64,000 bases of DNA from an uncultured Acidobacteriota bacterium (GCA_963797585.1 CAWCQH010000012.1:6312-70311), one strand, 5' to 3'. Positions 24,582-52,187 are shown, counted from the stretch's first letter. Program-made: numbers and translations. Notes: generated from the letters alone by a model not told the origin.

Positions 24582-24602
24582 TCGCCTGGGAACCATGCCT
24601 CC

Positions 24603-27866: not shown

Positions 27867-27902
27867 CGAACACGCACACCCTCTCCATGCAATCGCTAGA
27901 GG

Positions 27903-28862: not shown

Positions 28863-28951
28863 GAGTTACTCCTGAGATATGTGCGGCACGATCGCCAAGG
28901 GCGTCATGTGCGGGAGTTGATTTGAATCTTGGTGTGAACGCTTGCCGGATT

Positions 28952-29827
28952 TCAGACTTGTCCGCACACTTGGAATACCGCGCTATAGCGCTGGACACAG
29001 TCTTTTCGGTTTCGGTTGAGCGGTTCCAGGCCGTAATACTTCCACGGCCAGTGGCGCCTTGCGTCCAGGTCCAGTTCTGCGTTGTGAATTTGTTCCAATC
29101 GAATGGGTAGAGGTTTCAAACGGAGACGGCTTACAACCTTCTGCCGCACGTTCAAGTCCATTCCGCGACAGACCAATATTCCTCCCGGCCTGACAAGGCG
29201 CGTGACATTCATAAGAGCGGCGCTCGCATCACCCGGCTCCATGTGGATCAGAAAATTATTCGCCAGGACGACGTCGCAGCTCCCGAACTTCGACGGAAGG
29301 GCAGGGTCGCGTGCATCGGCCTGGGCCCATTGCACTCCCCTTCGAATTGCGTCTTTCACGCGAAAAACCGGGCTGTCCGTTTCGAACAATCCACGGAAGG
29401 CATCCTCGTAAATCGCCCCGCGGAACTCCATGTCATCCCGCAAATAGCAGGCCAGCCGGGCTCTCTCGATGGCGGCTTGGGAAATGTCGACACCCAAGGC
29501 AACAACATCCAGATCGGGCCGAGCCTTGCGAATCAGCCAAAGAAGCGAATACAGCTCCGCTCCGGAACTGCACGCCATGGAGCAAATCCGAACGCTGGCT
29601 CTTGAGACAAAGCTGCCACTGATGAGTTCGAGGACCGTCGAGAGCAGAGGTTCATTTCGAAGGAACCACGTCGATTCAGACTGGCCGCGAGAGCTGAATT
29701 TGCGCGATAGCGCGTGAATACAACTCCCCACCAGCCGGCCTGGAGATCCCTCCCGCACTGTGGGCGGTAAACGACGCCACACCGTGTCGCCTGCCTTGCC
29801 CGCGCTTCGCAGTAACGTATGTGACAT
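28952..29827 (-). CDS. CheR-type SAM-dependent methyltransferase
   Basis: 291 aa. RICSMACSSGAELYSLLWLI, VVALGVDISQAAIERA and CDVVLANNFLIHM are CheR methyltransferase-domain motifs. Confidence 0.7.
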   Translation of the reverse strand: MSHTLLRSAGKAGDTVWRRLPPTVREGSPGRLVGSCIHALSRKFSSRGQSESTWFLRNEPLLSTVLELISGSFVSRASVRICSMACSSGAELYSLLWLIRKARPDLDVVALGVDISQAAIERARLACYLRDDMEFRGAIYEDAFRGLFETDSPVFRVKDAIRRGVQWAQADARDPALPSKFGSCDVVLANNFLIHMEPGDASAALMNVTRLVRPGGILVCRGMDLNVRQKVVSRLRLKPLPIRLEQIHNAELDLDARRHWPWKYYGLEPLNRNRKDCVQRYSAVFQVCGQV

Positions 29828-29987
29828 GGAATTATTCCGACAAGGGAAAATTACACCTCAGGTGCGTACGACTCAAAGGTTATTTGTATTCGGGCGGAAA
29901 TTATCGAGGAGAAGCGGGCAATAATTAGGGTAGTCGACCGCCCGCAGGCTAACTACACATGTAATAAAGCAGAGGGAAGCCTTTGAA

Positions 29988-32900
29988 CTATTTCTTCTCC
30001 GTAGACTTTTCGATCGAATCTCGGAGTGCCCTCGCCAAATCCCGAACGAAAGGTTCCAGCAGCATGCCCGCCGGGTAGACCCGCAGAGTCACAATATGGT
30101 GCTGCTTCGCTAGCCCGGTCCAGTCCATTGGCTCGCCGAGGTACTGGGAGTACTGCCGCAGTGGACGAAAGTCAGTGATTGTTCCAGAGTATGGCTTCGG
30201 CACGTAACTCAGTATGGCCCGGTCGTTCACATCCCAAATTTTCGCCAGCACCGAGAATTCCGAATCGCTTCCGATTTTTCTCTCAAACCAGCCCCGCCAG
30301 ACGCTGCTTCGATTCCAAAGAACTCTTAGTTTTTCCTGGATGAATTCAACTTTTTGCCCAAAGTCCAAAAGGCCGAAGTTCATACAATGAAAGGCTACTC
30401 TCTGCACCTGGTAGACAATCTTGTCGTAAAGCACGTTCCTTCGGATCTTTGCCCAATTGACGGTATCGAACAAAGCGAGCAGAGCGACCTCTTCCCCTTG
30501 GGCCGTGAGGCGCTGCGCCATCTCAAGCGCCACCGTGCCGCCCATGCAATAGCCCCCGAGGAAATAGGGGCCGTGAGGCTGCACGCGCCGCAGCTCCTTG
30601 ACGTAAAGCTCGGCCATGTCCTCGATTCGCGTGAGTAGCGGACGCCGGCCGTCGAGCCCCTGCGACTCCAGCCCGTAAAATGGCTGATCGGCGCCCAAAC
30701 GTTGCGAAAGCGCGCGGTAAATCAAAACACTTCCGCCGCCTCCGTGAATGCAAAAGAAGGGAGGGCGCGAGCCGGCCGACTGGATCGTGACCAGCGGGCT
30801 CCAGCCACCCGCTTCGCCCCTATTGTCCAGAACATCGGCTAACTGCTCGATGGTCTGGGCTTTGAATAGAGTCGCGAGTGGAAGATTGGCATGGAATTCC
30901 CTTTCGATGCGGGCGAACAGCCGAACCGCGAGCAGCGAATTGCCGCCAAGGTCGAAGTAGTTTTGTCGAATGCCGATCGGCGCCACGCCGAGCAACTCCT
31001 CCCACAACTTCGTCAGCCGCTTCTCAGTGTCATTTCGAGCGACTGTGCTCTTTTCCTCGGCGCCAGTCATAGGCGCGGCGGCTTTCGCTTTCACGGGAGC
31101 TGAAATCGGTAGTTCGGCGACGCGCCGATCGGGATCGTGTGTCATCGCCTGAATTATGTTGCAGTAATCACAGAGAACGCGCCGAATCGTAGCCGGCTCG
31201 AAAAGGGCGGCATTGTATTCCAGCTGCAGCCGCACGCCTTCGGCTCTTTCGATAATGCCCAGCTGCATTTCAAACGGCGTTCCCAACCCAAAGGTAGGCA
31301 TGGGTGTAATAGTCAGATGTTGCAACTGGCGAGGCTGCAGAAACGCCGTCTGGTAGAAAAAATAAAACTGGAACAGCGGGTTGCGTCCATGCACGGATCG
31401 CACTTTCAGCTCATCGAGCAACATTTCGAACGGTAGCTCGGCGTGAGCCAGCGCGTTGAGCGTCACGTCCCGCACGCGAGCCAGTGTCTCGCGCAGGGTG
31501 GGATTCCCTCCCGTTTCCACATGCAGCGCTACGGGGCCCGAAAAGGGCCCGATCAGCCCTTCCGTCTCGGTGCGCCGGTTTGCCACAGGCGACCCTACCG
31601 TGACTTCCGTTTGATCGGCGTACCGCGACAGCAGAATCACGAAACCCGTGAGCAGCGTCATGAACATCGTCACGTTTTCCGACTGGCTCGCGGATTTGAG
31701 AGCGGCCGTTAAATCCTGCGGAAGAAGAATCGTTTCAAGGCGGGATTCAAGCGAAATGCGATGGCTCGGCGGATGATCGGTGGGAAAATCGAGGATTTTC
31801 AGCGAGTCTGCAAGCTGCTTCGTCCAAAACTCAAGATGCTCGCGCGCGGCATCGGACGCAAGCCAGTCGCCCTGCCACGCTGCGAAGTCCCCGTATTGGA
31901 TGGGAAGCGCCGAGTAATCCGGCTTTGCACCCTGGACAATCGCATCATAAATGGACCAGAGCTCCTGTTGAAACACGTTATGAGACCATCCATCCGCAAT
32001 GATGTGATGCATGGTCACCACTAGGACATGATGCTCGCTGTCCAAGTGGAACAACCTTGCTCGAAAAACCGGACCCCTCCCTAGATCGAAAGGCCGCTGG
32101 GCCTCTTCTCTCACGAGCCGCTCCACATTCGCTTCGGCGGCCGCGCCGTTGGAATTCTGAAGATCTACGACTTCTAGCGTGCACTTCCCGAGGGGTGAAA
32201 TGATCTGGGTCAACTTGCCGTCGCTCTCCTCGAAGCTGGTACGAAGAATTTCGTGCCTTCCGGCAAGCGTGCGGAAGCTTTCGTCGAGGGCTTTTTCCGA
32301 CAAAGTCCCCGTCAGCCGGACGCAAGCCGGCATGTTGAAAGCGGCGTTCCCGGGCGCGAATTTTGAAAGCAGCCAGAAACGCTCCTGGGCAGCACTGGCC
32401 GGCATCGCGTAGAGTTCAACCTCGGAAGCGGCCGTCGCAGACGACTCCGTGGCGGAGACGCCGGCCTCGGGGCCAGGTAACGCGGAATCGGGCGAAGAAC
32501 GGGCGAAGAACCGGGCGAAGGACCTCGATGCGAAGAAAGCTGCGATAGCTTGCGGGTCGGATCGCTCACGATTCCTTCCAGGAGTTCCTGGAAATCACGC
32601 AGCATTCGCTGTGCGGTAGCTTCCTGATAGAGGTCGGTGTTGTATTCAATCGAAAGACGCCAGCCCGGCCTCGCGCTCGACCATAAAGAAATTCAGATCG
32701 TAAAGCGCTCCCTGGGACTTCGACGGCATCGTCGACATCTTGATCCCGGCAAACTCAAACACGAATTCCGCAGCTCGCGCGTATTCGCGCTGGCAAATGA
32801 AGTTGATGCGGAAGAATGGTTCCTCAAACGTTTCCGCTGCGGGCCGCAAGGCCTTAATCACATTTTCAAAAGGAACATCCTGATTGGCGAATGCATCCCA

Positions 32901-33941
32901 CACCGTCTCGCGGACACGTTTCGCGAAATCGACGAATGCCGGATCGCCCTCCGCCAACGCGCGCAGAACCACGTGATTCACAAACAGACCTATCAAGCCT
33001 TCGACATCGGTCCGGTTTCTGCCTGCCAGCGGCGAGCCCACCGACACATCCTTCTCACCGGTATGGTGCGACAGAAGCGCCAGGCAAGCGGAAAGGCTGG
33101 TGATGAACATCGTTCCGCCCTGTTCGGTGCTGAACTCCTTGAGCGCGTCGGTGAGGCCGCGCGGCAGGAGCGTTGAGACGATTGCGCCGTTGGTCGTCCG
33201 CTCGGCAGGCCGCGGAAAATCCGGGCGAACTTCGAGGGGTCGGTACCCGGAGAGTTTGCGCTTCCAATAATCGAGCTGCCTCCTAATCTCCGGGCTCGAC
33301 AATTGATCCTGCTTCCAGACCACATAGTCGGCGTACTGGATGGGCAGCTCGGGAAGAGGAGATACGCGCCCACCCGCAAACGCACCGTAGATTTTCTGAA
33401 ACTCTTCCATGATCAGGCCCACCGACCAGCCATCCGACACTAAATGATGCATGGTGAGCATGAGGATGTAGCGGCGTTCCTCCATGCGCAGAAGCCCGGC
33501 GCGGACCAATTCGTCATTTTCGATGTTGAATCGCCGGCAAGCCTCCTCGGCGCACAACCGGTCCATTTCCCGTTCACGAATTTCGGAGGAAAGCGGCCTG
33601 AGGTCTGTCAAAGGGACGCGCAGGTGCAGATTCGGAGAAACCACCTGGACCGGTCTTCCATCGACCAGGGCAAAGATGGTCCGCAACGCCTCGTGCCTCC
33701 GCACGATCTCATTGAGCGTGCGCTCTACCAGAGCAGGATCGACAGGACCTTCGAGAATCCAGCGAAACGATCCGTTATAGGCCGGATTGCCGGGATTGGC
33801 CCGATCCGCATGCCACATCCTCTCCTGCACCGGCGAAAGGGGGAAAGCGAACAACTCCTCTTCTTCAAAGTTCGGGTTCGCGCGTGAATCGGGAATTGCC
33901 ATGTCCGGCGGAGCCCTCCGGAGGTCGCCTGAATCCGTCAT
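29988..33941 (-). pseudogene. NRPS, C-C-PCP-TE (no A domain), interrupted twice as assembled
   Basis: Fragments are 32646..33941 (C, HHLVSDGWS), the 32312..32605 frame (C-domain tail WRLSIEYNTDLYQEATAQRMLRDFQELL) and 29988..32405 (C HHIIADGWS, PCP DLGGNSLLAV, TE GGYCMGG). The ATG at 33941 overlaps the upstream stop (ATGA). Breaks lie at about 32664-32666 and within 32490-32523. Confidence 0.8.
32490..32523. repeat. 11/11/12-nt direct tandem repeat (gggcgaagaac x2, then cgggcgaaggac) in the C-C linker
   Basis: Read directly. Units are 32490-32500, 32501-32511 and 32512-32523. Confidence 0.95.
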
Positions 33942-36900
33942 GCCTTCGGTTCTAGCTCCGGGGCACCCTTGCGTGTGACTCTATATTTCGCGCGGGACAC
34001 CGGAACGATCGCCGGTTGCAACTTAACCCCGGCCGACTTGGATAGTTCCGCGAGAATCGCACCGACCGACCGGAACTGGAGTATCTGGCGCGGCGTCACC
34101 GGAATACCCGCTTTGTTGGCCCGCGCCGCAATCTGGAAGACGTGCAGGGAGTCGGCGCCCAGTTCAAACAGGTTGTCGTTCACGCTTACTTTTTCCAACC
34201 GCAGAACCTCGGCCCAAATCCCCGCCATGGCTTGCTCTTCGGCGGTTCGCGGGGCCACATACTGAGACGCTCGCGTTTGCCCCGACCAGTCGGGAGCGGG
34301 CAGCGCGCGTCGGTCGATCTTGCCATTGGGGGTCAGCGGGAACGCTTCCATCGCGATAAACGCGGCCGGGATCATGTAGTCGGGCAACTTGGCCAGCAGA
34401 AAATCACGCAACTCCGCCGCGGCAGGCTTTGGAGCGCCGCCGCTCAGGACGAAATACGCCACCAGGCGTTCTTCATCCGGGACGTCCGTCCGCAACAGCA
34501 CGACCGCCTCCCTGATCCCGTGATAAGCTGCCAACACGGATTCTATTTCGCCCAGCTCGATCCGGAAACCGCGGAGCTTGATCTGATCGTCCGCCCGGCC
34601 GAGAAACTCCAGTTCGCCATTCGGGCGCCGGAGAACGAGATCGCCCGTCTTATACATCCGCGCGCCGGGCTGCTTGCTGAAAGGATTCGCGAGAAACCGG
34701 CTCGCGGTGAGCCCCGGCTGGTTCAGATAGCCTCGCGCCAATCCGTCGCCGGCGATGTAAAGCTCTCCCGGAATTCCCAGGGGAACCATCTGAAGCTCCT
34801 TATCGAGCACATAGAACTGCGTGTTTGCGATCGGGCTCCCGATGGGAACCGATCCGCCGCCGCTTTCGACCTCGTCGGTCCCGGACCAGATCGTCGTCTC
34901 AGTGGGTCCGTACATATTCCACACGGATATTGAGCGCTTTGTTAATTGATTTGCAAGTTCTCTCGGAAACGCTTCGCCTCCGCACAGCACTTTCAGCGGT
35001 GGATTCCCGTCCCACCCTGCCTCAATCAACTGCTTCCACGTGACCGGCGTCCCCTGCATGGCCGTCGCGTTTACCTTCTTGAGGTATTCGAGGAGTCGAA
35101 CCCCAAATGCGCCCACCTCGCGGCTCACGATCACAAGCTTTGCACCGGTGCAGAGAGGCAGATAAAGTTCCAGCCCGGATATATCGAAGGAAAGCGTCGT
35201 AATCGCTGCGAATGTGTCGCTTTTCTTGAGCCCGGGCCTCAAAAGCATCGGCTTGCAGAAGATTGACGACGGCGCGATGCGGAATTTCCACGCCCTTGGG
35301 CTTTCCCGTCGAACCCGAGGTATAGAGCACGTACGCGAGATCTTCTGCACCGGCGATTTCTTCCGGCGAGTGGCCGCTTTCCTTCGCAATCTGCGGCCAA
35401 TCCGAGTCGAGGCGAATCACCCGCGCGTCGCCGAACGACCAACCCTTGGTGAGCGGGTCCTGGGTCAGGACAATCGACGCCTTTGCGTCGCCCAGGACGA
35501 ACCGCAGGCGATCCGGCGGGAACGTGGGATCGAGCGGCACATACGCCCCGCCGGCCTTCATCGTTCCGAGCAGCGCCACGATCATTTCCACGCCCCGCTC
35601 GACAAACACGGCGACCAGGGAACCCGGCTTCACGCCAAGTCCTCTCAAGTGGTGAGCCAGCTGGTTCGATCTGCGATTCAGTTCCGCGTACGTGACGTGA
35701 GTGTCTTCAAAAATGACCGCGGTCGAATCGGGTGTTTCCTCCACCTGCTGTTCGATCAGCTTGTGGACCGTCAGATTGCGCGGGACCGCCCGGGCAGTGT
35801 CATTCCATTGCTGCAGGAAGCGGCGTGTTTCCGATTCCGTGAGCAGCGGCAAACGGGAAACCAGGCTGTCGGGATCGGCTACCATCCCATCGAGCAGCAT
35901 TTCGTAGTGGTCGAGCCACCGCGCAATTGTCGCTTCGTCATAAAGGCCGGTGTTGTAGTCGCAGTCGAGCGTCAGGCCGTCTTTCGTTTCCACGACATTC
36001 AGGAAAATGTCGAAATTGACGAAGGCCTTTGGATTGGGATCGACCTCCGCCTCAAGGCCATCGAAGCGGACTCCTTCCCCGACCTTTTCCAGATTGAATT
36101 GAATTTCAGTGAGCGGCAGCCGCCCAGGATCGCGCTGTAGGTTGAGTTTCCGCACCAGCCGGCCATAGGTGTAGTTCTGGTGATCGTAGGCCGCGAAGAG
36201 TGTCTGCCGAACCTGTGCGAGAAACGACGCGGCGGTCTGTCCGCTTTCGACGCGCGCGCGCAGCGGAAGGAAGTTCACACAGTGCCCTACCAGAACTTTG
36301 TCTTCCACGAGCGACTGGCCCGCCGAGGGAATCCCGACAACAATGTCGTCCTGGCTGCTGAGCCTCGACAGCAGTATCTGAAAGCCCGCGAGAAGGGTGA
36401 CGAAAAGCGTGCATTTCTGCCGCGCGCCGATTTTCTTAATGCTGTTCAGCGTTTGCGCGTCGATTTTCTTGCGGTACGTTGCGCCCTTGAACTCCTTCAT
36501 CGCCGGACGGATGTGATCGGCCGGCAGATCGAGCAGCGACGCGGGATCGCGAAACTGTTCCACCCAGTATTTTTCGTTCTCCAGGCCTTCTGCGCTGTTG
36601 AAAAATTCCTGCTGGGATTGCGCGTACGCGGCAAACGGCATCGCTGGGGGCAGATCGCACGCACGCCCTTCCTTCAGGGCGTTATAGAGCTTAGCGACCT
36701 CGTCGAGCAGCACATTCGTTGACCAGCCGTCACAAACGATGTGATGGGAAGTGAATATCAGCTGGTGATACTGCGGATCGATCCTCACGAGCCGCGCCCT
36801 GACGAGAGGCCCCTTGCTCAAATCAAAGCGCGTCCGCGATTCTTCGTCCTTCAGGTGTTGCACACGAGCCTGGCGTTCCGGCTCGCCCAATCCAGCCAGG

Positions 36901-39900
36901 TCTATGAGCGGAATGTCCAGATTCAGATGCGTGGCGAAATGCTGCTTCCCGCCCTCGGAGTCAAAGCTTGCCCGCAACGCGTCGTGCCGCGCCGTGGCCT
37001 GCCGCAGGGCTTCTCGCAACGCGTTTTCATCGAGCTTCCCGCGCAGATGCAGCGTAAAGGATTCATTGTAACTGCAGGAAGCTTCATCGCTGATCTGGTC
37101 GGAGAGCCATACCTCCAGTTGCGACTCGGTAAGCGGCGCTTCCGTAGCGGCCGAAAACGAAGCCGATGCGAGCGCTTCCACAGGCACGCGGCTCAGGGAT
37201 TGTTTCGGTTCGCTGCGCCTGAGGAGCGACCATCGGCAACGTGTCGCCGCGCTTCATTTCTTCGATCGTTTCTTCGAACGCGCGAACGATCCGTTCGATA
37301 TCGGCATCCGTGTGCGCCGTCGTCAGGAAACACGGGAAGCCTTCAAGCAGGTGAATCCCCTTCGCTCGCAGGTGGTAGTAAAACAGGCTGCCGAACCGGG
37401 CGTCGGAAGGAAAACTGAAATAGAAGATGCTGGCGAAATTTTCGACGCGGGTGGCCACGCCGTTCTTCTCGATCATCTCATTCAGGCGCTGCACCATGTT
37501 GCCGGTGCGCTCGCTCAAGCGTCCGTTGCAGTTCCGGGCCTTGTTCCCTGAAGTGTTCCAGCACGGCCTTTACCGCGGCCAGCGTCAGCGGATGACGCAC
37601 GAACGTCCCCGCGAAGAAGGTGACGCCTACTTCGGGGTAAGAACCGTCGCCGAACTCCCACATGCCCCCGTCAAGCGCGTCCATGTACTGGCGCTTCCCT
37701 GCCAGCACGCCAATGGGCATGCCGCCCGCGAGCACTTTTCCGTACGTCGCCAGATCGGCGCGAATATCGAAAAGCGCCTGGCAGCCGCCCGGGTGTACGC
37801 GAAATCCGGTTACAACTTCATCGAAGATCAGGCAAGCGCCGGCATTCTCGGTGATCTCCCGCAATTGCTTCAGGAATTGCACAGGCTGAAGGTTCGGGTG
37901 GCGGCTCTGCACCGGTTCCACCATCACGGCGGCGAGCGACGATGCGTTGGCTCGAATCCATTCGAGCGATTCGGGCGTTCCGTATTCCAGAACGGTGATA
38001 TTTGCAACCGACTCGCGCGGAATTCCCGGCGCGGCCGGAACGGACTGCGGAACTCCGGCCCGATGGATTCCCTTCACCAGAACTTCATCGAACATTCCAT
38101 GGTAGTCGCCCGCGAAAAACACGACCTTGTTCCGGCCGGTTACCGTCCGAGCCACGCGCATCGCCGCGATCACGGCTTCGGATCCCGTGTTGCAGAACGT
38201 CGCCCGCTCGTTCCCGGTGAATTCGCAGATCATTTTCGCCACTTCGCCCGCGAGCAGCGTCTGCGGCCCGGTTTCAAATCCCTCCTGAAGCTGCTTCGCG
38301 ATCGCTTGCTGCAAAAAGTCGGGACGGTGGCCGAGCATGATCGGCCCAAAACCGTTCAGGATGTCGATGTATTCGTTCCCGTCCACGTCCCATAGTTTCG
38401 AGCCCTTCCGAGCGCACCGTAACGATCGGATAAACCATCTCCTTCCACTCGGGGCGGAATCCCGCCACCACGCGCGGATCGGCCAGCACGTTCCGGTATT
38501 CCTGCGTCTTGCGCTTGGAACCCTCCGTGCGTTGTGTGTAACGCTCCACAAGCGCTTGAACGTGCTCCTTCTGGCGCGCGGTCAGTTCGCCCGAAGGGGC
38601 CTTAGGCAGCGACTTGTAGGGCGTGTACCCCGCCAGCTCCTTCACCGGCTTGCTCGCGGAAGCGGCAGCGACAGGGGGCGGCGCAGCAGTTGTGGTTGCG
38701 GCCGAGTCGATCGGCTGATTCTGCAGCGCAGCCAGTTGCAGGGCGAAGAGCTGGTTCATCGCCTGAAGCTGCTCGCGCATCAGCCGCTCCACCGCAGACT
38801 CCGATGCAGCCGCCCTCGCGATTCATATTGGCGCCCACCGAAGTCGCAATCGGAGCGCCACGAAGCGGATCTGTTACGGGCGCGGTAGCAGGAACGGAAG
38901 GCGCGGCAGGGGCCGCAAATGCACTCACGGGCAACTTACTGTCGATATGGGCAGTCAGGTCGTCGAGAGTCGATTGATCGCCCAGCAACTGGCGGAACGT
39001 AATCTTGAGACCAAACTTCGCTTGCAGAGCCTGCGTCACTTGCGTCAGGAATAGAGAATCGAAACCCATTTCGAGAAACGTTACTGAAGAATCGGCCGCC
39101 GACATTTCCTTGCCGGACAGATCTTCGAAAATATCTGCCAGCGTCTGCCGGATTCGCGACGCTCGCATCTGAGTGTTTGGAATACTTTCTTCAACCAAGG
39201 TATTTGCTCCCGCCTGTTGATGGTTCTCCACGAGATTTGGAACATCTGGCGCGCTTGCCCCGCGCGCTTGATTCGTTTCTGCACTTGGCGTTTCCAGCCA
39301 ATATCGCTTCCGCTCAAAAGGATAGGTCGGTAACGAAACGCGCTCGCCGAAGCTCATTGCGGTGCACGGCCTCCCAGTCCGGCTGGACGCCCGCGAGCCA
39401 CAGCGACCCAAGCGCCGCCATCAAGCTTGCCGAATCGCCCTCCGCCGAATATCCATCCGACAGGGACGACACGATCACCGCATCGGGGGACGAACCATTC
39501 TCGCGCGCCAGAACGTTCAGCACGTTCCCCGGTCCAACCTCGACCAGAATATTGCGCGGATCCTTTCGCAGCTCCGTGACTCCAAGCGAAAACTGCACGG
39601 GTTGCCGGAAATGGCGCGCCCAGTAAGATGGATCGGTCGCTTCGCCCACGGTGATCCATTTGCCGGTCACGCCTGATACGTAGGGAATGCGCGGCGGATT
39701 CAAGTTCACCTGCGAGACGCGGTTCGTGAACGGCTCGATCAGGGGATCCATCATCGAGGAATGAAAGGCGTGAGACGTCGTCAGTCTGCGGCAGGCGACA
39801 CCTTCGCTATTCAGGCGCTGCTCGAACATATCGAGCACTTCGAAAGGCCCCGCCACCACGCACAGCGACGGCGCGTTCACGGCGGCGAGCGAAAGCGTTC

Positions 39901-41968
39901 CGTTCAACCGACTGCGCAGCTCCGCTTCCGGTAGCCGTACCGAAAGCATGCCGCCGGACGGAATCTCCTGCATCATGCGCCCGCGCTCGGCCACCAGGCC
40001 AAGAGCATCTTCCAGCGAGAAAACACCGGCAATGCAAGCCGCGACAAACTCGCCGATGCTGTGACCCAGCATGGCTTGCGGCCGAATTCCCCAGCTCATC
40101 CATAGCTGAGCGAGCGCGTACTCGATCGTGAAAATCGCGGGCTGGGCAATGATGGTGTCCGTGACGCGGCTCTTGTCCGCATCCGAGGCGCCTTCCGGCG
40201 GATACAGCAGCGAGCGAAGATCCGCATCCAGGAAGGGCTGCAGTATTTCCGCGCACCGGTCAACCGCGGCGCGAAACACCGGCTCAGAATCGTAAATCTC
40301 CCGGCCCATATTGAGGTGTTGCGATCCCTGCCCCGGAAACAGAAAACACACGGAACTGTTTTCTTTAGGGTTCAACCGCGTCCGCACGCGCCTACGATCG
40401 CACTTTACGAGCGCGTCGACCGCGTCCGCACCGTCGCGCGCCACCACCACACGCCGGCAGGCAAACGCGCGGCGCCCGGTTTGAAGCGTCCAGGCGACAT
40501 CAGCGAGATCTGCTTCGGGATTCGATCTCAAGTATTCGGCGAGATTTTCCGTCGCACGATCGAGAGCCGCTTCCGATCGCGCCGATAGCGGCAACAGATG
40601 TAAGCGCAGCGACGAAGGATCGGTCGCGCGCTCGGGAGCCTGTTCCAGCACAACATGCGCATTCGTGCCGCCCACGCCAAAGGCACTCACGCCCGCTCGC
40701 CGCGGACTTTCGCCGGAGTTCCAGATCGCGCGGCGGGAGTTTACGTAAAACGGGCTATTCGCAAGGTCGAATTGTGGATTCGGCCTCGTGTAATGCAGGG
40801 TAGGAGGAAACACCCCATGGCGAACGATGTGCGCCGCATGGATCAGCCCGGTCACCCCAGCCGCGATGTCGAGATGACCCACGTTCGTCTTGGCCGTACC
40901 CACCGCGCAACAATTCTTCCTGCCGCCGCGCGCCCCAAACGCCTGAGCTAGCGCCGCAAGCTCGATCGGATCGCCCAGCGGAGTCGCCGTGCCATGCGCT
41001 TCGATATATCCGATGGTCTCCGGTTCCACGCCGGCGGCAGCCTGCGCCAGCGCAATAACCCTCGACTGCCCTTCGACGCTCGGCGCCGTGTAACCCACCT
41101 TCGCCGACCCGTCGTTATTCGCCGCAAAACCTCGAATCACCGCGTAGATCTGGTCTCCGTCGCGGACCGCATCCTCGCAGCGCTTCAGCAGCACAACGCC
41201 CACACCGCTCCCGAATACAGTTCCCTGGGCCGCCGCGTCAAACGTGCGGCAGTGGCCGTCCGGTGAAACCATTCCGCCGTCTTGATAATAAGAGCCGCGC
41301 TTCTGCGGAAAAGTGATCGAGCTTCCGCCGGCCAGCGCCATGTCGCTTTGATACGTCAGCAACGACTGGCACGCCTGCGTCACCGCGAGCAATGAGGTCG
41401 AGCAACCCGCCTGCATCGTGAACGCCGGACCGCGCAGGTTCAGCTTGTAAGCCACGCGTGTGGCCAGAAAGTCGAGGTTGTTCCCCATCATCTCGGGGTA
41501 GTTCCCCACCTGATAGGCGCCCGTGAACGACTCGATGAAGGCGGGATTCTTGCAAATCTGCGAGAGGAAATACGTGCTCGTGCTGCATCCCGCGTAGACG
41601 CCGATGGCCCCCGGGTAAGCGCCGGGGTCGTAGCCCGCATCTTCGAATGCCTGCCAGCAGCATTCCAAAAACAGCCGCTGCTGCGGGTCGATCAATTCCG
41701 CTTCACGCGGGTAAATCCCAAAAAATTCCGGATCGAACTGGTCGACATCATCGAGAATCGACCGCGCCCGGACGTAATTCGGATCACGCGCGAGTTCCGC
41801 AGCCCCCGCCACTTCGAGCTCTTCCACTGTGAAGTGCGAGATGGACTCTACGCCATCGAGCTGATTGCGCCAGAACTCCGCGACGGACCGCGCCCCGGGG
41901 AAGCGCCCCGCCATGCCAATGATGGCGACTCCTTCCAGTGGTGGTTCGGAGGTATCGCGTGCGCTCAT
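33938..41968 (-). pseudogene. hybrid PKS-NRPS, KS-AT-ACP-aminotransferase-C-A-PCP, interrupted about 6 times as assembled
   Basis: Fragment 39314..41968 holds KS (GCSTS, EAHGTATPLGD, KTNVGH) and AT (GHSIGE, HAFH). Fragment 38602..39411 holds ACP (GFDSL). Fragments 38274..38792, 37478..38551 and 37084..37518 hold a class-III PLP aminotransferase (CNTGSEAV, ATYGK). Fragment 35022..37187 holds C (HHIVCDGWS) and the first half of A (YTSGSTGKPKG). Fragment 33938..35389 holds the second half of A (FDIS, NMYGPTE, PNGKIDR) and PCP (GADSL). The ATG at 41968 overlaps the upstream stop (ATGA). Confidence 0.85.
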
Positions 41969-43941
41969 GAGGCGCCCTCCGAGTGTCGCTGGCGCTCGCG
42001 GGCAAAAGCATCGCGTTGCTTTTGCGCCTGATGCCGCACCTCTGAAAACGAGGGAGCAGCCAGCCCCGCCTTGCTCAGATGAGCGGCAAGAGTGCGGATG
42101 GTGGCGAACTCAAAGAGGTCGGTAATGGGAATTTCAAGCAGCAGGGCCTTCTGAAGATTCGCATGGACCGCCAGCAGCAACAGCGAATCGCCTCCCAGAT
42201 CGAAGAAATTATCGTCCAGCCCAGCGCGTTCCACACGCAGTACTCGCTTCCACACATCGGCAATTTGCGCCTCGAACTGGGTTACCGTTCCTCCTCCCAT
42301 TGTTTCATCCCCGCCCAATACGGGTGGAGGCAACGCGGTTCGGTCAACTTTTCCGTTGGGGGAAAGCGGCAAGCGTTCCATGCGAACGAACAACGCCGGC
42401 ACCATGTGCGCGGGCACCTTGCCGGAAAGAAATTGCTTCAATTCTTTGCCGTTAGCTCGCGATTGTCCGCCGTCGTGAAATAACACACCAGGCGTTTCGA
42501 GCCGTCGTCTGCGGTATGCGGCGCCACGCAAGCCTGGTTGACGAACTTGTGGGTCCGCAGCGCGATCTCGATTTCGCCGGGCTCGATGCGGTAGCCGTGG
42601 ATTTTCATCTGGTTGTCGATCCGGCCAAGAAACTCGACAACGCCGTCATCCCGCCACCGTGCCAGGTCGCCTGTTCGGTACATCCGCGCGCCAGGCTCGT
42701 CTGAAAACGGATCGCGCACAAATTTCTCGGCCGTCTTCGCCAGGTCTTTCAAATAACCGCGCGCCACGCCATCGCCACCGGCATAGAGTTCGCCGGGGGT
42801 TTGTCCGCCCACGGGCCGCAAACTTTCATCGAGGATGTAAACGCGCGTGTTCGAGACAGGCCTGCCGATCGGCACCGATTCAGGCACTGGATCGCCCTTC
42901 CTCATCACGTGGCAACAGGTAAATGTTGTGTTCTCGGTTGGTCCGTAGCCATTGATCACGGTGCAATCCGGCAAGTTCTCAAGCACCCTACGAACGTGGC
43001 GCGAGGAAAGAACATCGCCGCCGGCCAGAAGCTGCCGGATCGGGCGCAAATCCTCCAGCCTTTGCTCGACCATCAGATTGAACAGTCCGGAGGTGAGCCA
43101 CAGTGTCGTGATCCCGTGTTCCCGAATCGCGCGGCCCAAATCTTCCAGCGAGGCCGTTTGCGGAGGCATCACTACGAGCTTTCCGCCATTCAGGAGCGGT
43201 CCCCAGATTTCCAGCGTGGAGGCATCGAAAGACACCGGCGCAAACTGGAGGAAAACCTCCTCGGGCCCAAACTTGCAGAAGTTCGTATTCCGAACCAGGC
43301 GCACCACCGCCCGGTTTTCAACCATCACGCCTTTCGGCTGGCCGGTCGAACCCGAGGTGTACATCACATAAGCCAGATCGGTGGCCGCACCCATCGAACC
43401 CGTATCGGCACGTTGCGGGGTGCCGTCGCCGTGCGTCGCCATTTCGTCAGCACATAGAACTACGACATTCCGGTCCGGCGAATGTTCCGGCGATTGACCG
43501 CTGGCATAAAATCACGGGCGTGGCCGTTTCGGCGAGCATGTAATCCAGGCGGTCTTGCGGATAAGAAGATTCAAGCGGCACATAAGCCCCGCCCGCTTTC
43601 AGAATTCCCAGGAATGCGACGATCATTTCAGGGGAACGATCGAGGCAGCATCCCACCATCGTTTCGCGGGCCACGCCCAAAGACCGCAACCGCGCCGCCA
43701 GTTGGTTCGCACGGCTGTTCAACTCCGAGTAGCTCAGTTGCCGCGACCCGCAGACCACGGCAACGCGATCGGGATTCCGCCCGGCGACTTCCTCGAACAG
43801 CTGTGCAATCGTCTTATCGCGAGGGTAGTCCGTCCGTTCCCCGGCCCACGATTTGTCGCTGTGCGTCCACGCAGAAACAACGGCGGGACCAACCTCGTCC
43901 CGCTGCGGGAAAGTCGCCCGATTGTGAAGGGGAAGTGTCAT
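41965..43941 (-). pseudogene. NRPS loading didomain A-PCP, interrupted twice as assembled
   Basis: Fragments are 43447..43941 (A N-terminus: LSYSELNSRANQLA, LKAGGAYVPL), 42438..43442 (LAYVMYTSGSTGQPKG, FDAS, NGYGPTE, YRTGD) and 41965..42531 (PNGKVDR, PCP DLGGDSLL). One-nt discontinuities lie at about 43468 and 42445. Confidence 0.8.
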
Positions 43942-43954
43942 AGCAGTGCGAAGA

Positions 43955-45571
43955 CTAGGGCAGCAAAATCTCCTTCTCTCCAAACAGCCGCTCGGCAACG
44001 ATCCCACGAGAGCGGCACGCCTCAATCAGACGGTCGGACTGGATAATCGGATTCGATTTGTCCGTGTACTTAATGCTCATTATATAATTAAGCCACGGCT
44101 CCTGTCCCATCGCATAGACATAGACTTCCCTGCAATGCAACTGATTCACAATGGCCATCGCGCGCTCGTAATTCGACCCCGCCAAGCGCCGCGACTGGTC
44201 CTTCGGCCGTTCCAGCCGCTGCGTGAGCAGCGGTCCGTAGATCCAGGACATGGGGGCGCCGTCGCATTCCATTCCCACAAACAACACATCCACGTCCCCA
44301 ACTTGTTCGTGGATGTGCTCGTACAGTTTCGGCGCGATGTTGCAGGAATCCGCCGCAAACAACAGCGTGTGGGCGCCCACGCGCAGGTGGTACGCGGACT
44401 TGGTAAGCACGTTCAAATCGCCGTGTTCGCCGAGAAACGGAATGGCCGTGATCGCGCCGCCCTCGAAGTCGATCTCTTCCATTTCGGCCAGCTCAATGAC
44501 ATTTCGAAAGCCGCACTGCTTCAGGAGCAGTTTCAGCGAGGGGTCCTGTAGCGCGCCCCCTCCGTTGCGGGGCACCACGATGTTGCGAATACGGTGCCGC
44601 AATTGAAGCAGCGTTTCAAAGAGGATGTGGTCCTGATGGTTGTGCGTGATCAGGACGTAATCGATCACCTCGGGGAGATCTTCATACGTGTACCGCGAAA
44701 CACTATTCTCGTATGTGTAGCTGAGCACCGGATCCATCAGCACGCTTACGTTCTTGGTCTCGAGAAGGATGCAGGCGTGCCCGAAATAGCGCCACCGCGC
44801 GCCCTGCCCTTTATATTTTGCGTACGGGCGGGGCGGCTCGTGAGTCAGGAATGACCGAAAACGATTCGCATCCTCGTCATTCAGACCCAGCGTCTCGCGC
44901 ACCAAATCGAAGGAGGCCGGCTTATTCTTCATGCGAAAGAGCTTGTCGATCCGCTCGCTCGAGAAAGGAATCTGCAAGTGCACCGAGCTTCCCTTGTCCA
45001 GCCGCGGCGTGCTCAACACAAAAGGCCGCTCGTCGCCGGTGACCTCTGAGAACATCAGGCTCTGCAGCGATTCGTCGTACGCCTTGCTCTTGTAAAGAAG
45101 CGGTTCGATCAGGCGGAAGGATGGGTGATTGTTCAAGTCGTAGGTCAGTTCCACGTAACCCTGAAGGTTTTTCGGCACCTCGTCATAGAGGGCTTCCAGG
45201 CTGTAACCGGTTCCCTTCGTCCGCAGCATCGCGTCAAGCTCTTCAATCGAGCGAGAAAGTTCAACCAGCGTCTGGCGGTCACGCAGCGTGCGATCGCGCA
45301 GCTCCGTCACTTCTTTTACCCGGTTTTCTCCCAGATCCATGAAGGGGCCGCCCAGCAGGGCGGGGTTTCGAACAGCGGTCTGGTGCGCTTCAGGAGACTC
45401 GATATAGGACTCCATTATGCGCAGATGCCGCTCGGTGAGATTTCGTGCCGCGGTCGCAGGAGGGATCAAGTGGGCCCAGGCATACCAACCATCTACAAGG
45501 GGCTCCACAAGCACGTTCGACCTGAGATAATAGACCCCGTTCTTCATGCCCCTGTTAGCCCTGGACCTCAA
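43955..45571 (-). CDS. MBL-fold protein with ~250-aa N-terminal domain, CmlA-like di-iron beta-hydroxylase candidate
   Basis: 538 aa. ITHNHQDHI is an HxHxDH motif, followed by FLGEHGD and FAADSC. Size and two-domain layout match CmlA-type hydroxylases of PCP-bound amino acids as I remember them. The gene sits immediately upstream of an A-PCP gene (13-nt gap). Confidence 0.5.
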   Translation of the reverse strand: MRSRANRGMKNGVYYLRSNVLVEPLVDGWYAWAHLIPPATAARNLTERHLRIMESYIESPEAHQTAVRNPALLGGPFMDLGENRVKEVTELRDRTLRDRQTLVELSRSIEELDAMLRTKGTGYSLEALYDEVPKNLQGYVELTYDLNNHPSFRLIEPLLYKSKAYDESLQSLMFSEVTGDERPFVLSTPRLDKGSSVHLQIPFSSERIDKLFRMKNKPASFDLVRETLGLNDEDANRFRSFLTHEPPRPYAKYKGQGARWRYFGHACILLETKNVSVLMDPVLSYTYENSVSRYTYEDLPEVIDYVLITHNHQDHILFETLLQLRHRIRNIVVPRNGGGALQDPSLKLLLKQCGFRNVIELAEMEEIDFEGGAITAIPFLGEHGDLNVLTKSAYHLRVGAHTLLFAADSCNIAPKLYEHIHEQVGDVDVLFVGMECDGAPMSWIYGPLLTQRLERPKDQSRRLAGSNYERAMAIVNQLHCREVYVYAMGQEPWLNYIMSIKYTDKSNPIIQSDRLIEACRSRGIVAERLFGEKEILLP

Positions 45572-45948
45572 CAGTGCCCTACTGTTGTAGTGGCTGCAAG
45601 AGTACTAATAGCCTAAACACAATTCCCCGTGCCCTTGAATGCAAGTGCCGGTCCATTTTTGTTTAGCGCATAAACATCTGATTAAAAACGAATTAAACTG
45701 GCATCCGAGCATTTTCCCAAGCGAACATGCCGAAATCGGGGAAATAACGGAAAACTTTTTCTTTCAAATTCCCTTCTCACGATCTTCGTGATCGTCCATC
45801 CGCGCGGACTCGGTTTGAAAGTCCAGGCATGCGTCTCCATTGAGAGAATAGAAACATCGCGTCGCCGCGCGCTTGGAATTGCATACCGGATGGAACACAA
45901 TGAAGGTTCGTGGGGTTCGAGTCCTTAAATCCTTATCAGGAGATTCCA

Positions 45949-47301
45949 TTGAAGATTTCGGTGATTGGCTCGGGTTATGTCGGCTTGGTGACAGGCGGTT
46001 GCCTCGCGGCAATCGGTCATGAAGTGATATGCACCGACAATGACGCCTCAAAAATCAAGATTCTTGAGGATGGAGGCCTCCCTATTTACGAACCTGGCCT
46101 CGAGAAGGTGATAGCCAAGGCCCGCGCCGAGAAGAAGATCAGCTTCAGCGCGAATCTCGCCGACGCCGCCACTCGCGGCGATGCCATCTTCATCTGTGTG
46201 GGAACCCCACCGCTTCCCAACGGGGATGCGGACCTGAGCGCCATCGACCATGTCGCGCGAATGATCGCTACCGAAGCGCGCAGCCCCAAAATCGTCGTCG
46301 AGAAGAGCACCGTGCCGGCTCGCACAGGCCAGGAACTCAAGCGTGCCCTGGGCGTTTATGGACGTAAATCGAACGTGACCTTCAGTGTTGCCTCCAATCC
46401 CGAGTTTCTGCGCGAAGGTACGGCGGTGGAGGATTTCCTCCATCCGGACCGGATCGTTGTCGGCGTGGAAGATGAAAATGCCGAAAAGCAGCTCAAGGAA
46501 ATTTACCGCCCGGTCCTGGAGCAGAGTTTCAAGTGTCTCGTCCATCCGTCCGGCTGCCCGCAGGGACCCAAACCCGCATGGCTCGTAACCACGATCAACA
46601 GCGCTGAGCTCATCAAACACGCCTCCAATTCATTCCTGGCGCTCAAGATTTCCTACGCCAACATGGTGTCGGCGCTCGCTGAGCGGCTGGGAGCGGACAT
46701 CGAAGAAGTGATGCACGCCGTCGGAATGGACCCGCGCATCGGTAAAAGTTTTCTGCGCACAGGATTGGGTTTCGGAGGGTTCTGCCTACCCAAAGACTTG
46801 CAGGCCTTCGTGCACCTGGCCGAGCGTTCCGGCGTGGACTTCACGATGCTTCGGGAAGCGGAAAAGATCAATAAGAAGCAGATCGAACGCTTCTGCGAAA
46901 AAATACGTAAGGCCCTCTGGGTCATCCGCGGCAAACAAATCGGCGTCTTGGGCCTTGCCTTCAAGGCCAACACGGACGATATTCGCTTTGCCCCGGCCAT
47001 CGATTTGATCAACCAACTGTTAGGAGAAGGTGCCCGGATTCGCGCCTATGATCCGGAAGCCATGGACCGGGCGCGCGCCGTGCTGCCTCAGATCGAGTAT
47101 GCGAAGTCTCCTTATGAGGCCGCGGAGGGCTCCGAAGCGCTGCTCATCGCCACTGAGTGGGACGAGTTCAAGAAACTCGATTGGGAGCGCGTTCACGACG
47201 CGATGGATCGCCCATTGATCCTCGACGGCCGTAATATATTGTCCCCCAAGGACATGAAGGCGAGGGGCTTCGAATATCACTGCTTCGGGCGTCCCGCCTG
47301 A
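45949..47301 (+). CDS. ugd: UDP-glucose 6-dehydrogenase
   Basis: KISVIGSGYVGLVTGGCLA Rossmann N-terminus, GFGGFCLPKD catalytic Cys motif. TTG start at 45949 with AGGAG 8 nt upstream. The ORF is open to 45910. Confidence 0.9.
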   Translation: MKISVIGSGYVGLVTGGCLAAIGHEVICTDNDASKIKILEDGGLPIYEPGLEKVIAKARAEKKISFSANLADAATRGDAIFICVGTPPLPNGDADLSAIDHVARMIATEARSPKIVVEKSTVPARTGQELKRALGVYGRKSNVTFSVASNPEFLREGTAVEDFLHPDRIVVGVEDENAEKQLKEIYRPVLEQSFKCLVHPSGCPQGPKPAWLVTTINSAELIKHASNSFLALKISYANMVSALAERLGADIEEVMHAVGMDPRIGKSFLRTGLGFGGFCLPKDLQAFVHLAERSGVDFTMLREAEKINKKQIERFCEKIRKALWVIRGKQIGVLGLAFKANTDDIRFAPAIDLINQLLGEGARIRAYDPEAMDRARAVLPQIEYAKSPYEAAEGSEALLIATEWDEFKKLDWERVHDAMDRPLILDGRNILSPKDMKARGFEYHCFGRPA

Positions 47302-47330
47302 CCTGGAATGCTGCCCATTTTTGAGATGCC

Positions 47331-47381
47331 GCGCGGATGAGTCGGGGAACGTTCTCTCCGACTCATCTCCGCGTGGTTTTT
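47331..47381 (+). terminator. rho-independent terminator candidate downstream of ugd
   Basis: Stem gatgagtcgg (47336-47345) pairs with ccgactcatc (47358-47367) around a 12-nt loop. Extra outer pairs are possible. A ggttttt run follows (47375-47381). Confidence 0.55.
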
Positions 47382-47448
47382 GCACCTTCCCTTAAAACTC
47401 TTCGTCCCGCCGTCACTGCTATAGTTGAGGTTGGAGTCTAACCGCACG

Positions 47449-48900: not shown

Positions 48901-49043
48901 AGCCTGAAGGCTTCCCTGTTTCACTCCCTTTCCTGCCGTATTCCTTGTAGTTACCCATTAACACGCCCGCCGAATTTGGGCGCTATCCAGCGAAAAGGCT
49001 TGCCGTATCCTGAGTACATCGAATTCAGAGCTAAAGAGGAATC

Positions 49044-50453: not shown

Positions 50454-50488
50454 GCTTGGCCCCTAGGCAGGGGCTCTTGGGACGGCAG

Positions 50489-51133: not shown

Positions 51134-51154
51134 AGATTCGCCCGATAGAAAACT

Positions 51155-51634: not shown

Positions 51635-51639
51635 CCTGC

Positions 51640-51972: not shown

Positions 51973-52187
51973 CGTTTGTTCTTTGATTTGCGTTCGCTCG
52001 CCGGCTGCCTCTGCCATGGGATAAAAGCCTCCTCAAGAAGTCGATCGTAGTAAAGTGATGGTCCGGGGGCGCTGAAGCCGGGGAGCGCCACAAGCTCTTT
52101 GATATCATCAATCTAACGTAAGGTAAAGATTATTCGCCCGGGAAGGGGAGGTGAACCCCGGAAATCCGGCCCCTTTGAGGGAACTCG

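Follow-up and report, generated by a model that had tools for sequence, protein, structure and literature searches.

The window (the whole 64,000-nucleotide stretch of DNA analysed here, from an uncultured Acidobacteriota bacterium) carries a real hybrid peptide/polyketide gene cluster of a soil acidobacterium. A characterised counterpart of this NRPS-PKS cluster was looked for and not found, in agreement with the preliminary description, which had recognised no known system in this combination of domains; the cluster is an orphan and belongs to a family that is widespread but uncharacterised. Judged from its sequence, it probably makes an unusual diamino acid from a hydroxylated valine. Our best overall explanation (a live family cluster, a valine-primed diamino-acid pathway and frame breaks that are artefactual) is, in our estimate, somewhat better than an even bet. 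Acidobacteria rank with the commonest bacteria in soil, yet hardly any metabolite of theirs is known. If real, the predicted diamino acid would provide an additional assembly-line building block and a way in to a metabolite common in soil.

On the minus strand, Pfam domain models give the order CmlA/FrsH-type diiron hydroxylase, A-PCP, KS-AT-ACP-AmT-C-A-PCP (AmT, aminotransferase) and C-C-PCP-TE. The genes of the cluster, including four accessory genes, are as follows:

43955-45571, minus strand: CmlA/FrsH-type non-heme diiron beta-hydroxylase, CmlA_N plus MBL fold (Pfam; ORF intact)
41965-43941, minus strand: loading didomain A(Val-like)-PCP (AMP-binding and PP-binding by Pfam; two frame breaks)
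33938-41968, minus strand: gene 2, KS-AT-ACP-AmT-C-A(Gly)-PCP (Pfam, tblastn; six single-base insertions)
29988-33941, minus strand: gene 3, C-C-PCP-TE without an A domain (Pfam; two compensating frame breaks)
28952-29827, minus strand: CheR-like SAM methyltransferase (Pfam CheR, E 1e-18)
27903-28862, minus strand: Cupin/JmjC-like protein (weak Cupin_8 match in Pfam; tblastn)
27100-27866, plus strand: TIGR04325-family methyltransferase (NCBIfam TIGR04325, E 2e-45, residues 875-1070)
23667-24581, plus strand: predicted JmjC-type Fe(II)/2OG oxygenase (synteny, structure model, Foldseek)

Every architectural claim made for the four units in the preliminary description was reproduced with these models, and the motifs that it quoted (HNHQDH, FDAS and HAFH) and its two ATGA overlaps (41965-41968 and 33938-33941) were all found. 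It had also claimed that KR, DH and ER domains are absent: no Pfam family for any of them matched across the megasynthase genes, and there is no space for them in gene 2, since its intact homologues are only 2660-2719 aa long. The span that it proposed, 29988-45571, holds for the megasynthase core but leaves out the conserved accessory genes at 23667-29827; the cluster reaches to approximately 23667, which adds JmjC-type oxygenases and two methyltransferases.

The 538-aa hydroxylase does have the CmlA architecture first ascribed to it: it matches the full CmlA_N profile (PF18456; residues 15-246, E 8e-92), MBL families cover residues 261-433, and it aligns end to end with CmlA structures (4JO0 and 5KIK, E ~2e-130; for 4JO0, E 2.6e-130 over residues 14-531). 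In the same PDB comparison, the fit to the non-heme diiron monooxygenase 8A90 is better than that to CmlA (E 1e-146, residues 14-536). The motifs HNHQDH at 310, GEH at 381, ADS at 407 and MECDG at 434 are conserved and align with 8A90; HNHQDH and the downstream Glu, Asp and Glu are presumably the metal ligands, as in the CmlA ligand set. In full-length alignment, both CmlA (chloramphenicol) and FrsH (FR900359) show the same two domains and metal-binding motifs. The substrates of these enzymes are p-aminophenylalanine and leucine, respectively, whereas that of the window enzyme is predicted to be valine, with the product serving as a PKS starter. We know of no demonstration of valine beta-hydroxylation at the tertiary carbon by a member of the CmlA/FrsH family. 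Unlike CmlA and FrsH, the window subfamily is unusually conserved across many Terriglobia, its homologues, spread over more than 120 protein clusters, being 75-96% identical. The hydroxylase gene lies immediately upstream of A-PCP in the window, as it does in each of the seven relatives inspected (L003-L006 and L086-L088), and the A-PCP ATG at 43941 is 13 nt past the hydroxylase stop codon. This adjacency fits a carrier-bound amino acid substrate (PMC7794379); FrsH has been shown to hydroxylate leucine on its carrier, and isoleucine is also accepted by that system (PMC7794379).

By comparison with published codes, the specificity code of the loading A domain, DALWLGGTF, is of the valine type, and the domain retains Asp235 (FDAS), in support of the proposal that it activates an alpha-amino acid and not a fatty acyl group; valine, or a similar amino acid with a branched aliphatic side chain, is its predicted substrate. 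The carrier motif of its PCP is GGDSL, and intact A-PCP homologues of 656-676 aa are present in L005, L006, L086 and L088. Because A-PCP is joined to the KS gene by the ATGA overlap and the order A, KS, AT, AmT, C, A recurs in approximately 70 of 80 related loci, we infer that this didomain is the PKS starter. An amino-acid starter agrees with the preliminary description but is less singular than was implied there: the nearest relatives of this aminotransferase clade normally have such a layout.

Gene 2, in which Pfam also finds a KS-AT linker, comprises the following domains:

40790-41935, minus strand: KS (ketoacyl-synt, Ketoacyl-synt_C; motifs AGCSTS, EAHGTAT and NVGHL, with Cys-His-His present)
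39488-40345, minus strand: AT, malonyl-type (Acyl_transf_1; motifs GHSIG and HAFH)
38944-39144, minus strand: ACP (PP-binding; motif GFDSL)
37231-38407, minus strand: PLP aminotransferase, MycA type (Aminotran_3; PLP lysine in YGKV)
35820-37145, minus strand: condensation domain C2, taking the chain from the ACP (Pfam E 7e-98; motif SHHIVCDGWS)
34319-35753, minus strand: A domain 2, glycine-type (AMP-binding, AMP-binding_C; code DILQLGMIW, given as Gly in PMC12283262)
34049-34228, minus strand: PCP2 (PP-binding; motif GADSL)

The best PDB match of the aminotransferase is the MycA domain of mycosubtilin synthesis (6KFM/6KFU, E 2e-94), which supports the iturin/mycosubtilin analogy drawn earlier. 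MycA and ItuA (mycosubtilin and iturin) share with the window cluster the order KS-AT-ACP-aminotransferase-C-A-PCP, the lack of KR, DH and ER, and the logic by which a beta-keto group becomes a beta-amine. The starters differ: that of MycA is a fatty acid introduced by an acyl ligase, whereas the window relies on a valine-coded NRPS A domain that retains Asp235, so that the amine would form beside an existing amine. The products of MycA and ItuA are lipopeptides, whereas lipid loading was not seen in the window cluster. An iturin-family lipopeptide cluster was considered and rejected, as the module is iturin-like but the starter domain (Asp235, DALWLGGTF) is of the NRPS type. In microcystin synthesis, the hybrid KS-AT-ACP-aminotransferase-C-A-PCP module of McyE, which includes a C-methyltransferase, produces a beta-amino acid, Adda, built as a long polyketide chain from phenylacetate; gene 2 is likened to it here by description, in module order and predicted beta-amino formation. 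A vicinal diamine is formed in biotin synthesis, where a class-III PLP aminotransferase acts on a ketone beside an amino carbon (KAPA to DAPA; BioF/BioA). The biotin enzymes stand alone and take free acids as substrates; as an assembly line they are unrelated, and the analogy is purely chemical.

The window aminotransferase falls in the glutamate-semialdehyde aminomutase branch of the class-III enzymes, and might conceivably act as an aminomutase or at a position other than the beta-keto group, giving a 4-amino-3-oxo acid or a tetramic-acid-like lactam and no diamine. We regard this as very improbable: the match to glutamate-semialdehyde aminomutases (E 2e-51) is far more distant than that to the beta-ketoacyl aminotransferase domain of MycA, the ACP-AmT-C position is the same as in MycA, and no competing reductive domain is present.

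Gene 3 is less easily read. Its domains are:

32540-33845, minus strand: condensation domain C3, ordinary elongation type (Pfam; HHxxxDG intact)
31104-32402, minus strand: condensation domain C4 (Pfam; PDB matches Txo1, Txo2 and TycC)
30831-31019, minus strand: PCP3 (PP-binding; motif GGNSL)
30030-30761, minus strand: thioesterase with a cysteine nucleophile (Pfam Thioesterase; GYCMGG)

The solved structures nearest to C3 are the C domains of Txo2, Txo1 and TycC. C4 occupies the slot of the A domain of relatives, which are C-A-PCP-TE or C-PCP-TE; homologues with two condensation domains are intact, at 1307-1389 aa, in L006, L007, L012 and L018. Simple collinearity leaves two canonical C domains, one carrier and no A domain unexplained. 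The thioesterase has Cys at the GxSxG position, as in approximately 27 related loci. Cysteine nucleophiles are also found in the thioesterases of obafluorin (ObiF) and sulfazecin (SulM) synthesis, which form strained rings; the likeness to the window TE is one of nucleophile alone (Cys instead of Ser). The Cys thioesterase, the last carrier without an A domain and the four accessory tailoring genes are all points absent from the preliminary description.

Starter or trans-delivered amino acids are tailored on the carrier in barbamide (BarA/B/D), syringomycin (SyrB1/B2/C) and coronamic acid (CmaA/B) synthesis. As in the window, these systems have a free-standing A-PCP by an oxygenase-type enzyme, upstream of a PKS or an A-less module, and the window shows the complete Syr-type layout of free-standing A-PCP, adjacent tailoring oxygenase and A-less acceptor module. 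It is therefore worth asking whether A-PCP and the hydroxylase mainly feed the terminal module in the manner of SyrB1/SyrB2, with beta-hydroxyvaline ending up at the C-terminus, the Cys-TE perhaps closing a strained ring such as a beta-lactone, as happens in obafluorin synthesis, and the starter role being additional or absent. A terminal carrier without an A domain, the Cys nucleophile, and third A domains in relatives (L002, L026, L038, L042 and L071) that share the valine-type code of the loader would all suit this arrangement. Nevertheless, we consider it doubtful. The known systems rely on Fe/2OG halogenases together with dedicated transfer enzymes, whereas the window has a diiron hydroxylase and no SyrC/CmaE-type (alpha/beta-hydrolase) aminoacyl transfer enzyme among its ORFs scanned with Pfam. 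Furthermore, a KS with its condensing cysteine must be given an acyl group, translational coupling or fusion links A-PCP to the KS family-wide, and Cys-TEs occur equally in relatives that have no hydroxylase.

In the valine-primed pathway that we favour, the loading A domain would place valine (or a similar branched aliphatic one) onto PCP1 as the amino acid, and the diiron enzyme, which could however act on PCP3 instead, would hydroxylate C-beta of the tethered amino acid, as do CmlA and FrsH. The KS, with malonyl-ACP, would then generate a 4-amino-3-oxo acyl-ACP, whose 3-keto group, KR being absent, would be turned into an amine by the MycA-type aminotransferase to give a 3,4-diamino-5-hydroxy-5-methylhexanoyl unit. 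C2 would join glycine to this unit, and the A-less C-C-PCP-TE protein would contribute one further unit, probably valine that the loading A domain delivers in trans, because the third A domain of relatives carries a valine code. Release would be by the Cys-TE, possibly with cyclisation, and the JmjC-type oxygenases and two methyltransferases would decorate the product. For the family as a whole, we tentatively suggest, as a possibility somewhat short of even, small peptides based on a vicinal (beta,gamma) diamino acid derived from valine, with a tertiary hydroxyl in the Terriglobia version, a biotin-like keto-to-amine step on the line, and Cys-TE release from an A-less tandem-C module. If so, this would be a new building block and a new metabolite class, made by some of the commonest soil bacteria and also by relatives in eight or more phyla.

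The frame breaks mentioned in the preliminary description were confirmed: A-PCP has two, gene 2 has six and gene 3 has two, which compensate for each other. Together with one in an accessory gene (near 27165), this makes a total of approximately 11 one-base breaks, approximately 10 of them in the assembly line. Those in the assembly line are:

43475-43476, minus strand: A-PCP, one base more than in L003 and L086
42448-42450, minus strand: A-PCP, one base fewer than in L003 and L086
39345, minus strand: gene 2, one extra base, post-AT linker
38808-38809, minus strand: gene 2, one extra base
38406-38409, minus strand: gene 2, one extra base, GG read as GGG
37517-37522, minus strand: gene 2, one extra base
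37189, minus strand: gene 2, one extra base
35249-35254, minus strand: gene 2, one extra base, inside A domain 2
near 32660 and 32450, minus strand: gene 3, compensating breaks (three-frame reading of 32380-32700)

In tblastn with the intact homologues, gene 2 follows the frame path -1/-2/-3/-1/-2/-3/-1. The breaks are confined to the cluster (approximately 11 in the 22 kb between 23.6 and 45.6 kb, versus none detected in approximately 42 kb of flank), a distribution that is not obviously expected from random sequencing error and that recent decay would also fit. L003, which is 92% identical, is likewise broken, by its own private set at other positions. If the breaks were real mutations and this copy a decaying, non-functional pseudogene cluster, the window would be uninformative on a live pathway in its host. 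We think this unlikely, if not negligibly so. The typed breaks are all single-base events, seven of the eight being insertions (five of G), and they are private to the window with respect to both L003 and L086, none being shared with L003. No nonsense codon occurs in approximately 3300 corrected codons, the catalytic motifs of the assembly line are all intact, and protein identity to relatives is as high in the cluster as for the flanking genes. In addition, broken copies are limited to some long-read contigs; the syntenic L086 is unbroken, as is every homologue from short-read MAGs. The breaks are probably consensus errors of long-read metagenome assembly, and the native cluster is therefore probably functional. 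The one-base indels that selectively affect this cluster in long-read metagenome assemblies would cause automated tools to split or miss it.

Among the accessory genes, that at 23667-24581 gave sub-threshold matches to Pfam and PDB at the sequence level. Its structure model (pLDDT 82, pTM 0.80) matches the residue hydroxylases NO66, YcfD and FIH with Foldseek probability 1.00 (E ~1e-10), and the triad H160, D162 and H233 is invariant across 23 sequences; on this model, the product is predicted to be a JmjC-type 2OG oxygenase with a double-stranded beta-helix and HxD...H triad. The gene is a conserved partner of the cluster family: it is 69% identical to a gene directly after gene 3 in L006, and 40-53% identical to genes adjoining the AmT gene at nine other loci. 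The Cupin/JmjC-like protein (27903-28862) is its paralogue (26-30% identity). A gene 50% identical to that of the CheR-like methyltransferase adjoins a CmlA-type cluster in L087. The break near 27165 fuses the TIGR04325 methyltransferase, the N-terminal part of which is encoded in a different frame, into an upstream PMT_2 ORF (24603-27866); L006 and L007 have free-standing homologues next to the cluster.

The cluster type is common, not rare, in public genomes. The amino-acid-primed A-PCP/KS-AT-ACP-AmT/C-A-PCP core, found in many phyla, is often a single open frame from A through KS, AT, AmT and C to A, and in L087 it lies inside one 4467-aa protein. Terriglobia metagenomes contain the CmlA-bearing version in abundance, with hydroxylase and JmjC oxygenase 60-96% identical across very many contigs, and the valine-malonate-aminotransferase-glycine core also occurs in Proteobacteria, Cyanobacteria, Bacteroidota, Verrucomicrobiota and Planctomycetota. 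With its conserved oxygenases, recurrent core and cultured carriers, which include Rhizobium, Variovorax, Caballeronia, Pedobacter and Nostoc, this cluster type is a reasonable target.

The line on the minus strand at 29988-45571 consists of four units, as determined by Pfam scans of the open frames.

Units of the line, from 45571 down to 29988 (Pfam domain models)
Unit 1, minus strand: 538-aa protein, CmlA_N (full length, E 8e-92) and then an MBL fold (hydroxylase)
Unit 2, minus strand: adenylation domain and carrier (A1, PCP1)
Unit 3, minus strand, 33938-41968 (gene 2): KS, KS-AT linker, AT, carrier, class-III aminotransferase (AmT), condensation (C2), adenylation (A2), carrier (PCP2)
Unit 4, minus strand, 29988-33941 (gene 3): two condensation domains (C3, C4), carrier (PCP3), thioesterase (TE)

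The domain models thus reproduce the order given in a preliminary description, and the motifs and both ATGA overlaps reported there are found in the sequence. Its claim that KR, DH and ER are absent also holds: the scans of the open frames of 29988-45571 gave no match to ketoreductase, dehydratase or enoylreductase families, and intact homologues of gene 2 (2660-2719 aa) are wholly taken up by the domains listed. The KS catalytic triad (Cys-His-His), the AT motifs GHSIG and HAFH, the serines of all four carriers and the PLP lysine of the aminotransferase domain are intact; HHxxxDG is kept in all three C domains, and the hydroxylase retains HNHQDH, GEH, ADS and MECDG. The architecture of the line is well supported, and the chemistry predicted from it is plausible. 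A scan of 27800-46000 for promoters and terminators gave results no better than chance.

The 538-aa protein had been assigned to the CmlA type, and it aligns end to end with CmlA (E about 2e-130) in addition to carrying the full-length CmlA_N domain. The match to PDB 8A90 is better (E 1e-146); this entry, a non-heme diiron monooxygenase according to its deposition, is presumably FrsH. FrsH, a characterised aliphatic member of the family, hydroxylates carrier-bound leucine, and isoleucine is accepted by the FrsH system (PMC7794379). The hydroxylase is 75-96% identical to its homologues in the best 120 protein clusters, and its gene lies directly upstream of the A-PCP and KS genes in every context examined (related loci L003-L006 and L086-L088). 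It is seen in loci of the Terriglobia type (9 of 89, window counted), where it is an addition to the core layout. The best solved relative of the AmT domain is the aminotransferase domain of the mycosubtilin synthase MycA (E 2e-94), with glutamate-semialdehyde aminomutases far behind (2e-51), which directly supports the iturin/mycosubtilin-type reading proposed earlier. The window cluster lies outside the iturin family, however, because a fatty-acyl starter is absent.

Pocket positions of the A domains were mapped on a GrsA fragment, the numbering being self-consistent at all of them. The A1 code, DALWLGGTF, is one change away from the valine codes DALWIGGTFK and DAFWLGGTFK, both in published code listings; that of A2, DILQLGMIW, is listed as a glycine code (PMC12283262). 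Loaders in the other hydroxylase-bearing loci have the A1-type code DA[LFI]WLGG, with one DAFFFGVTF, and the A2 codes of these loci vary (glycine, threonine-like and others). Across the AmT-clade loci, a valine-type loader code followed by a glycine-type next A domain is frequent. The sequence itself shows which domains are present, in what order, with which motifs and of which families; from these we infer the following steps. Valine would be loaded onto PCP1 and then hydroxylated at C-beta; malonate extension of the hydroxylated valine and transamination of the 3-keto group would yield a 3,4-diamino-5-hydroxy-5-methylhexanoyl unit, which would be joined to glycine. One more extension would take place on the A-less module, with further hydroxylation and methylation, and the Cys-TE would release the product, which may be cyclic. 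The formulas predicted on this basis are C7H16N2O3 (176.116) for the hydroxylated diamino acid, C9H19N3O4 (233.138) once glycine is attached and C14H28N4O5 (332.206) after one more valine, leaving aside methylation, additional hydroxylation and ring closure.

The tail of the line, C-C-PCP-TE, is also found in eight related loci (L006-L009, L012, L013, L017 and L018), and other relatives end in C-A-PCP-TE (with a sometimes degenerate A domain) or C-PCP-TE. In relatives that have a third A domain, its code is often of the valine type; we infer from this that PCP3 may be loaded in trans, with the loading A domain as the simplest candidate. The main alternative also concerns this A-less module: in a shuttle model, the A-PCP and hydroxylase pair would feed the terminal module. 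We consider this unlikely and favour entry of the hydroxylated valine at the KS; the order A, KS, AT, AmT, C, A is found in about 70 of 80 AmT loci, often in one open frame. Both C3 and C4 resemble ordinary elongation domains, and C3 was ruled out as an epimerisation or dual domain by its C-type motifs and by its nearest structures, which are ordinary elongation C domains. The TE has a cysteine nucleophile (GYCMGG), a feature shared by about 27 relatives with or without the hydroxylase.

These 80 loci were obtained by scanning an alignment of the AmT domain against one genome per species, and they come from Acidobacteriota, Proteobacteria, Cyanobacteria, Bacteroidota, Verrucomicrobiota, Planctomycetota, Myxococcota and others; the layout is thus widely distributed. 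A 2013 survey already contained orphan A-CP-KS-AT-CP-PLP proteins, predicted as Nrp-Mal-Gly (PMC3870968), and the same order prevails in our loci; in this aminotransferase clade, starting from an amino acid is therefore the norm and no exception. Soil and peat metagenomes, together with MAGs named Terriglobia, Candidatus Sulfotelmatobacter, Acidoferrum and Acidiferrales, supply the closest proteins, and one related locus (L006) has the same four genes, unbroken and with the same overlaps. The preliminary description recognised no characterised cluster of this kind. No characterised counterpart was found in the available literature on CmlA-type, aminotransferase/diamine and Acidobacteriota clusters either. 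In its predicted chemistry the window cluster combines a beta-amino-forming module like that of MycA and McyE with on-carrier hydroxylation of the CmlA/FrsH type. Two candidate counterparts were rejected: the kasumigamide (kas) cluster has a CmlA homologue, but its domain order differs, it has a KR and it has no aminotransferase; the solanimycin cluster is a trans-AT PKS with another layout.

As the preliminary description had mentioned, the genes of this copy are interrupted. The breaks were located with intact homologues as guides and by DNA alignment to the related loci L003 (92% identity) and L086 (78%), which share the flanking synteny of the window.

Frame breaks in the window
About 43476, 39345, 38809, 38409, 37522, 37189 and 35249: one-base insertions relative to L003/L086
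About 42448: one-base deletion relative to L003/L086
Near 32660 and 32450: two compensating shifts
Near 27165: eleventh break, which joins an accessory methyltransferase to the glycosyltransferase-like ORF before it

Of the eight window indels typed against these relatives, seven are insertions, five of them a G following a C/G-rich triplet. None of the eight is shared with L003, which has a private set of its own. No stop codons occur in about 3300 codons of the corrected frames. Loci L005 and L006, which come from short-read MAGs, are unbroken, as is L086. The single-base size, the excess of insertions, the lack of nonsense codons and the intact motifs make consensus errors of long-read metagenome assembly the probable source of the breaks. 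Their distribution is uneven: about 11 one-base indels fall in the 22 kb of the cluster and accessory genes (23600-45600), whereas the flanks (1-23600 and 45600-64000, about 42 kb) yielded none. L003 likewise has indels confined to the cluster, at other positions, and the 10 kb flank common to both has no frameshifting indels in coding sequence. Long genes elsewhere in the window are unbroken, and overlapping ORFs at 60929-63199, considered as further breaks, proved to be ordinary RsfS, NadD-like and Obg genes. A dead cluster, with breaks representing genuine recent decay, is a doubtful reading of this copy. If the breaks are consensus errors, their concentration here could possibly reflect cross-mapping of reads from many co-occurring relatives of a conserved cluster. 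The sequence quality of this copy is poor.

The span 29988-45571 holds the four units ascribed to it, but accessory genes extend the cluster further.

Accessory genes
23667-24581: JmjC-type ORF, with no significant family match by sequence
About 27100-27866: TIGR04325 methyltransferase, with free-standing copies in related loci L006 and L007
27903-28862: paralogue of the gene at 23667-24581, 26-30% identical
28952-29827: CheR-like methyltransferase, with a 50% identical counterpart in related locus L087

The ORF at 23667-24581 shares 69% identity with the gene after gene 3 in L006. In nine other loci, genes adjacent to the AmT gene are 40-53% identical to it, and its Terriglobia homologues show 60-97% identity. 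Six homologues match hydroxylase homologues in longest-contig size, which implies that they lie on the same contigs. A model of the protein (pLDDT 82) matches NO66, YcfD and FIH (Foldseek E about 1e-10), JmjC-type 2OG hydroxylases acting on protein residues, and its HxD...H triad is invariant. These conserved accessory genes lie beyond the original limits, and the cluster therefore spans about 23667-45571. A 1087-aa ORF at 24603-27866 (plus strand) joins a PMT_2/GT-C-type membrane glycosyltransferase to the TIGR04325 methyltransferase, and this fusion is probably an artefact; near 27100-27165, the methyltransferase's first ~35 profile positions lie in another frame. In cyanobacterial loci (L046, L051, L060 and L033; Nostoc, Aulosira, Alkalinema), a JmjC-type oxygenase gene is inserted at about 11450-13100, with the AmT gene on one side and the next NRPS gene on the other; this suggests that the wider family shares a hydroxylation step carried out on-line.

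Two relatives have additional genes beside the hydroxylase gene. In L087 (5939-9558) it is preceded by sulfotransferase, CheR-like methyltransferase, APS kinase and PHP-domain genes, so the product of this relative may be a sulfated variant; one 4467-aa protein of L087 contains the A-PCP and gene 2, or at least its start (the locus ends before the tail). In L088 (6051-9499) it adjoins a divergently transcribed gene for an A-PCP-TE protein (897 aa) and a gene for an Sfp-type phosphopantetheinyl transferase; in that lineage, the two may act in trans to supply the A-less module.

Cell-envelope glycan genes flank the cluster in several lineages (window 45910-47301; L005, L012, L013, L017, L087 and L088), encoding UDP-sugar dehydrogenase, GT1/GT2/GT4 glycosyltransferases, Wzy_C, exosortase EpsH and polysaccharide deacetylase. 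The UDP-sugar dehydrogenase was rejected as a conserved partner: the neighbours in L012, L013 and L017 are only 27% identical to the window's gene and probably not orthologous to it, so this neighbourhood may be a coincidence in EPS-rich Acidobacteria. Elsewhere in the window, 16731-23549 (plus strand) encodes an intact 2272-aa protein, probably a giant surface protein, with five DUF4082 repeats, Laminin_G_3, Big_7, Big_2, CHB_HEX_C_1 and PASTA. Two neighbouring AAA_22 ATPase genes lie on the minus strand at 12215-14377 and 14454-15764, the former with a TonB_C domain fused at its C-terminal end, which is an unusual pairing.
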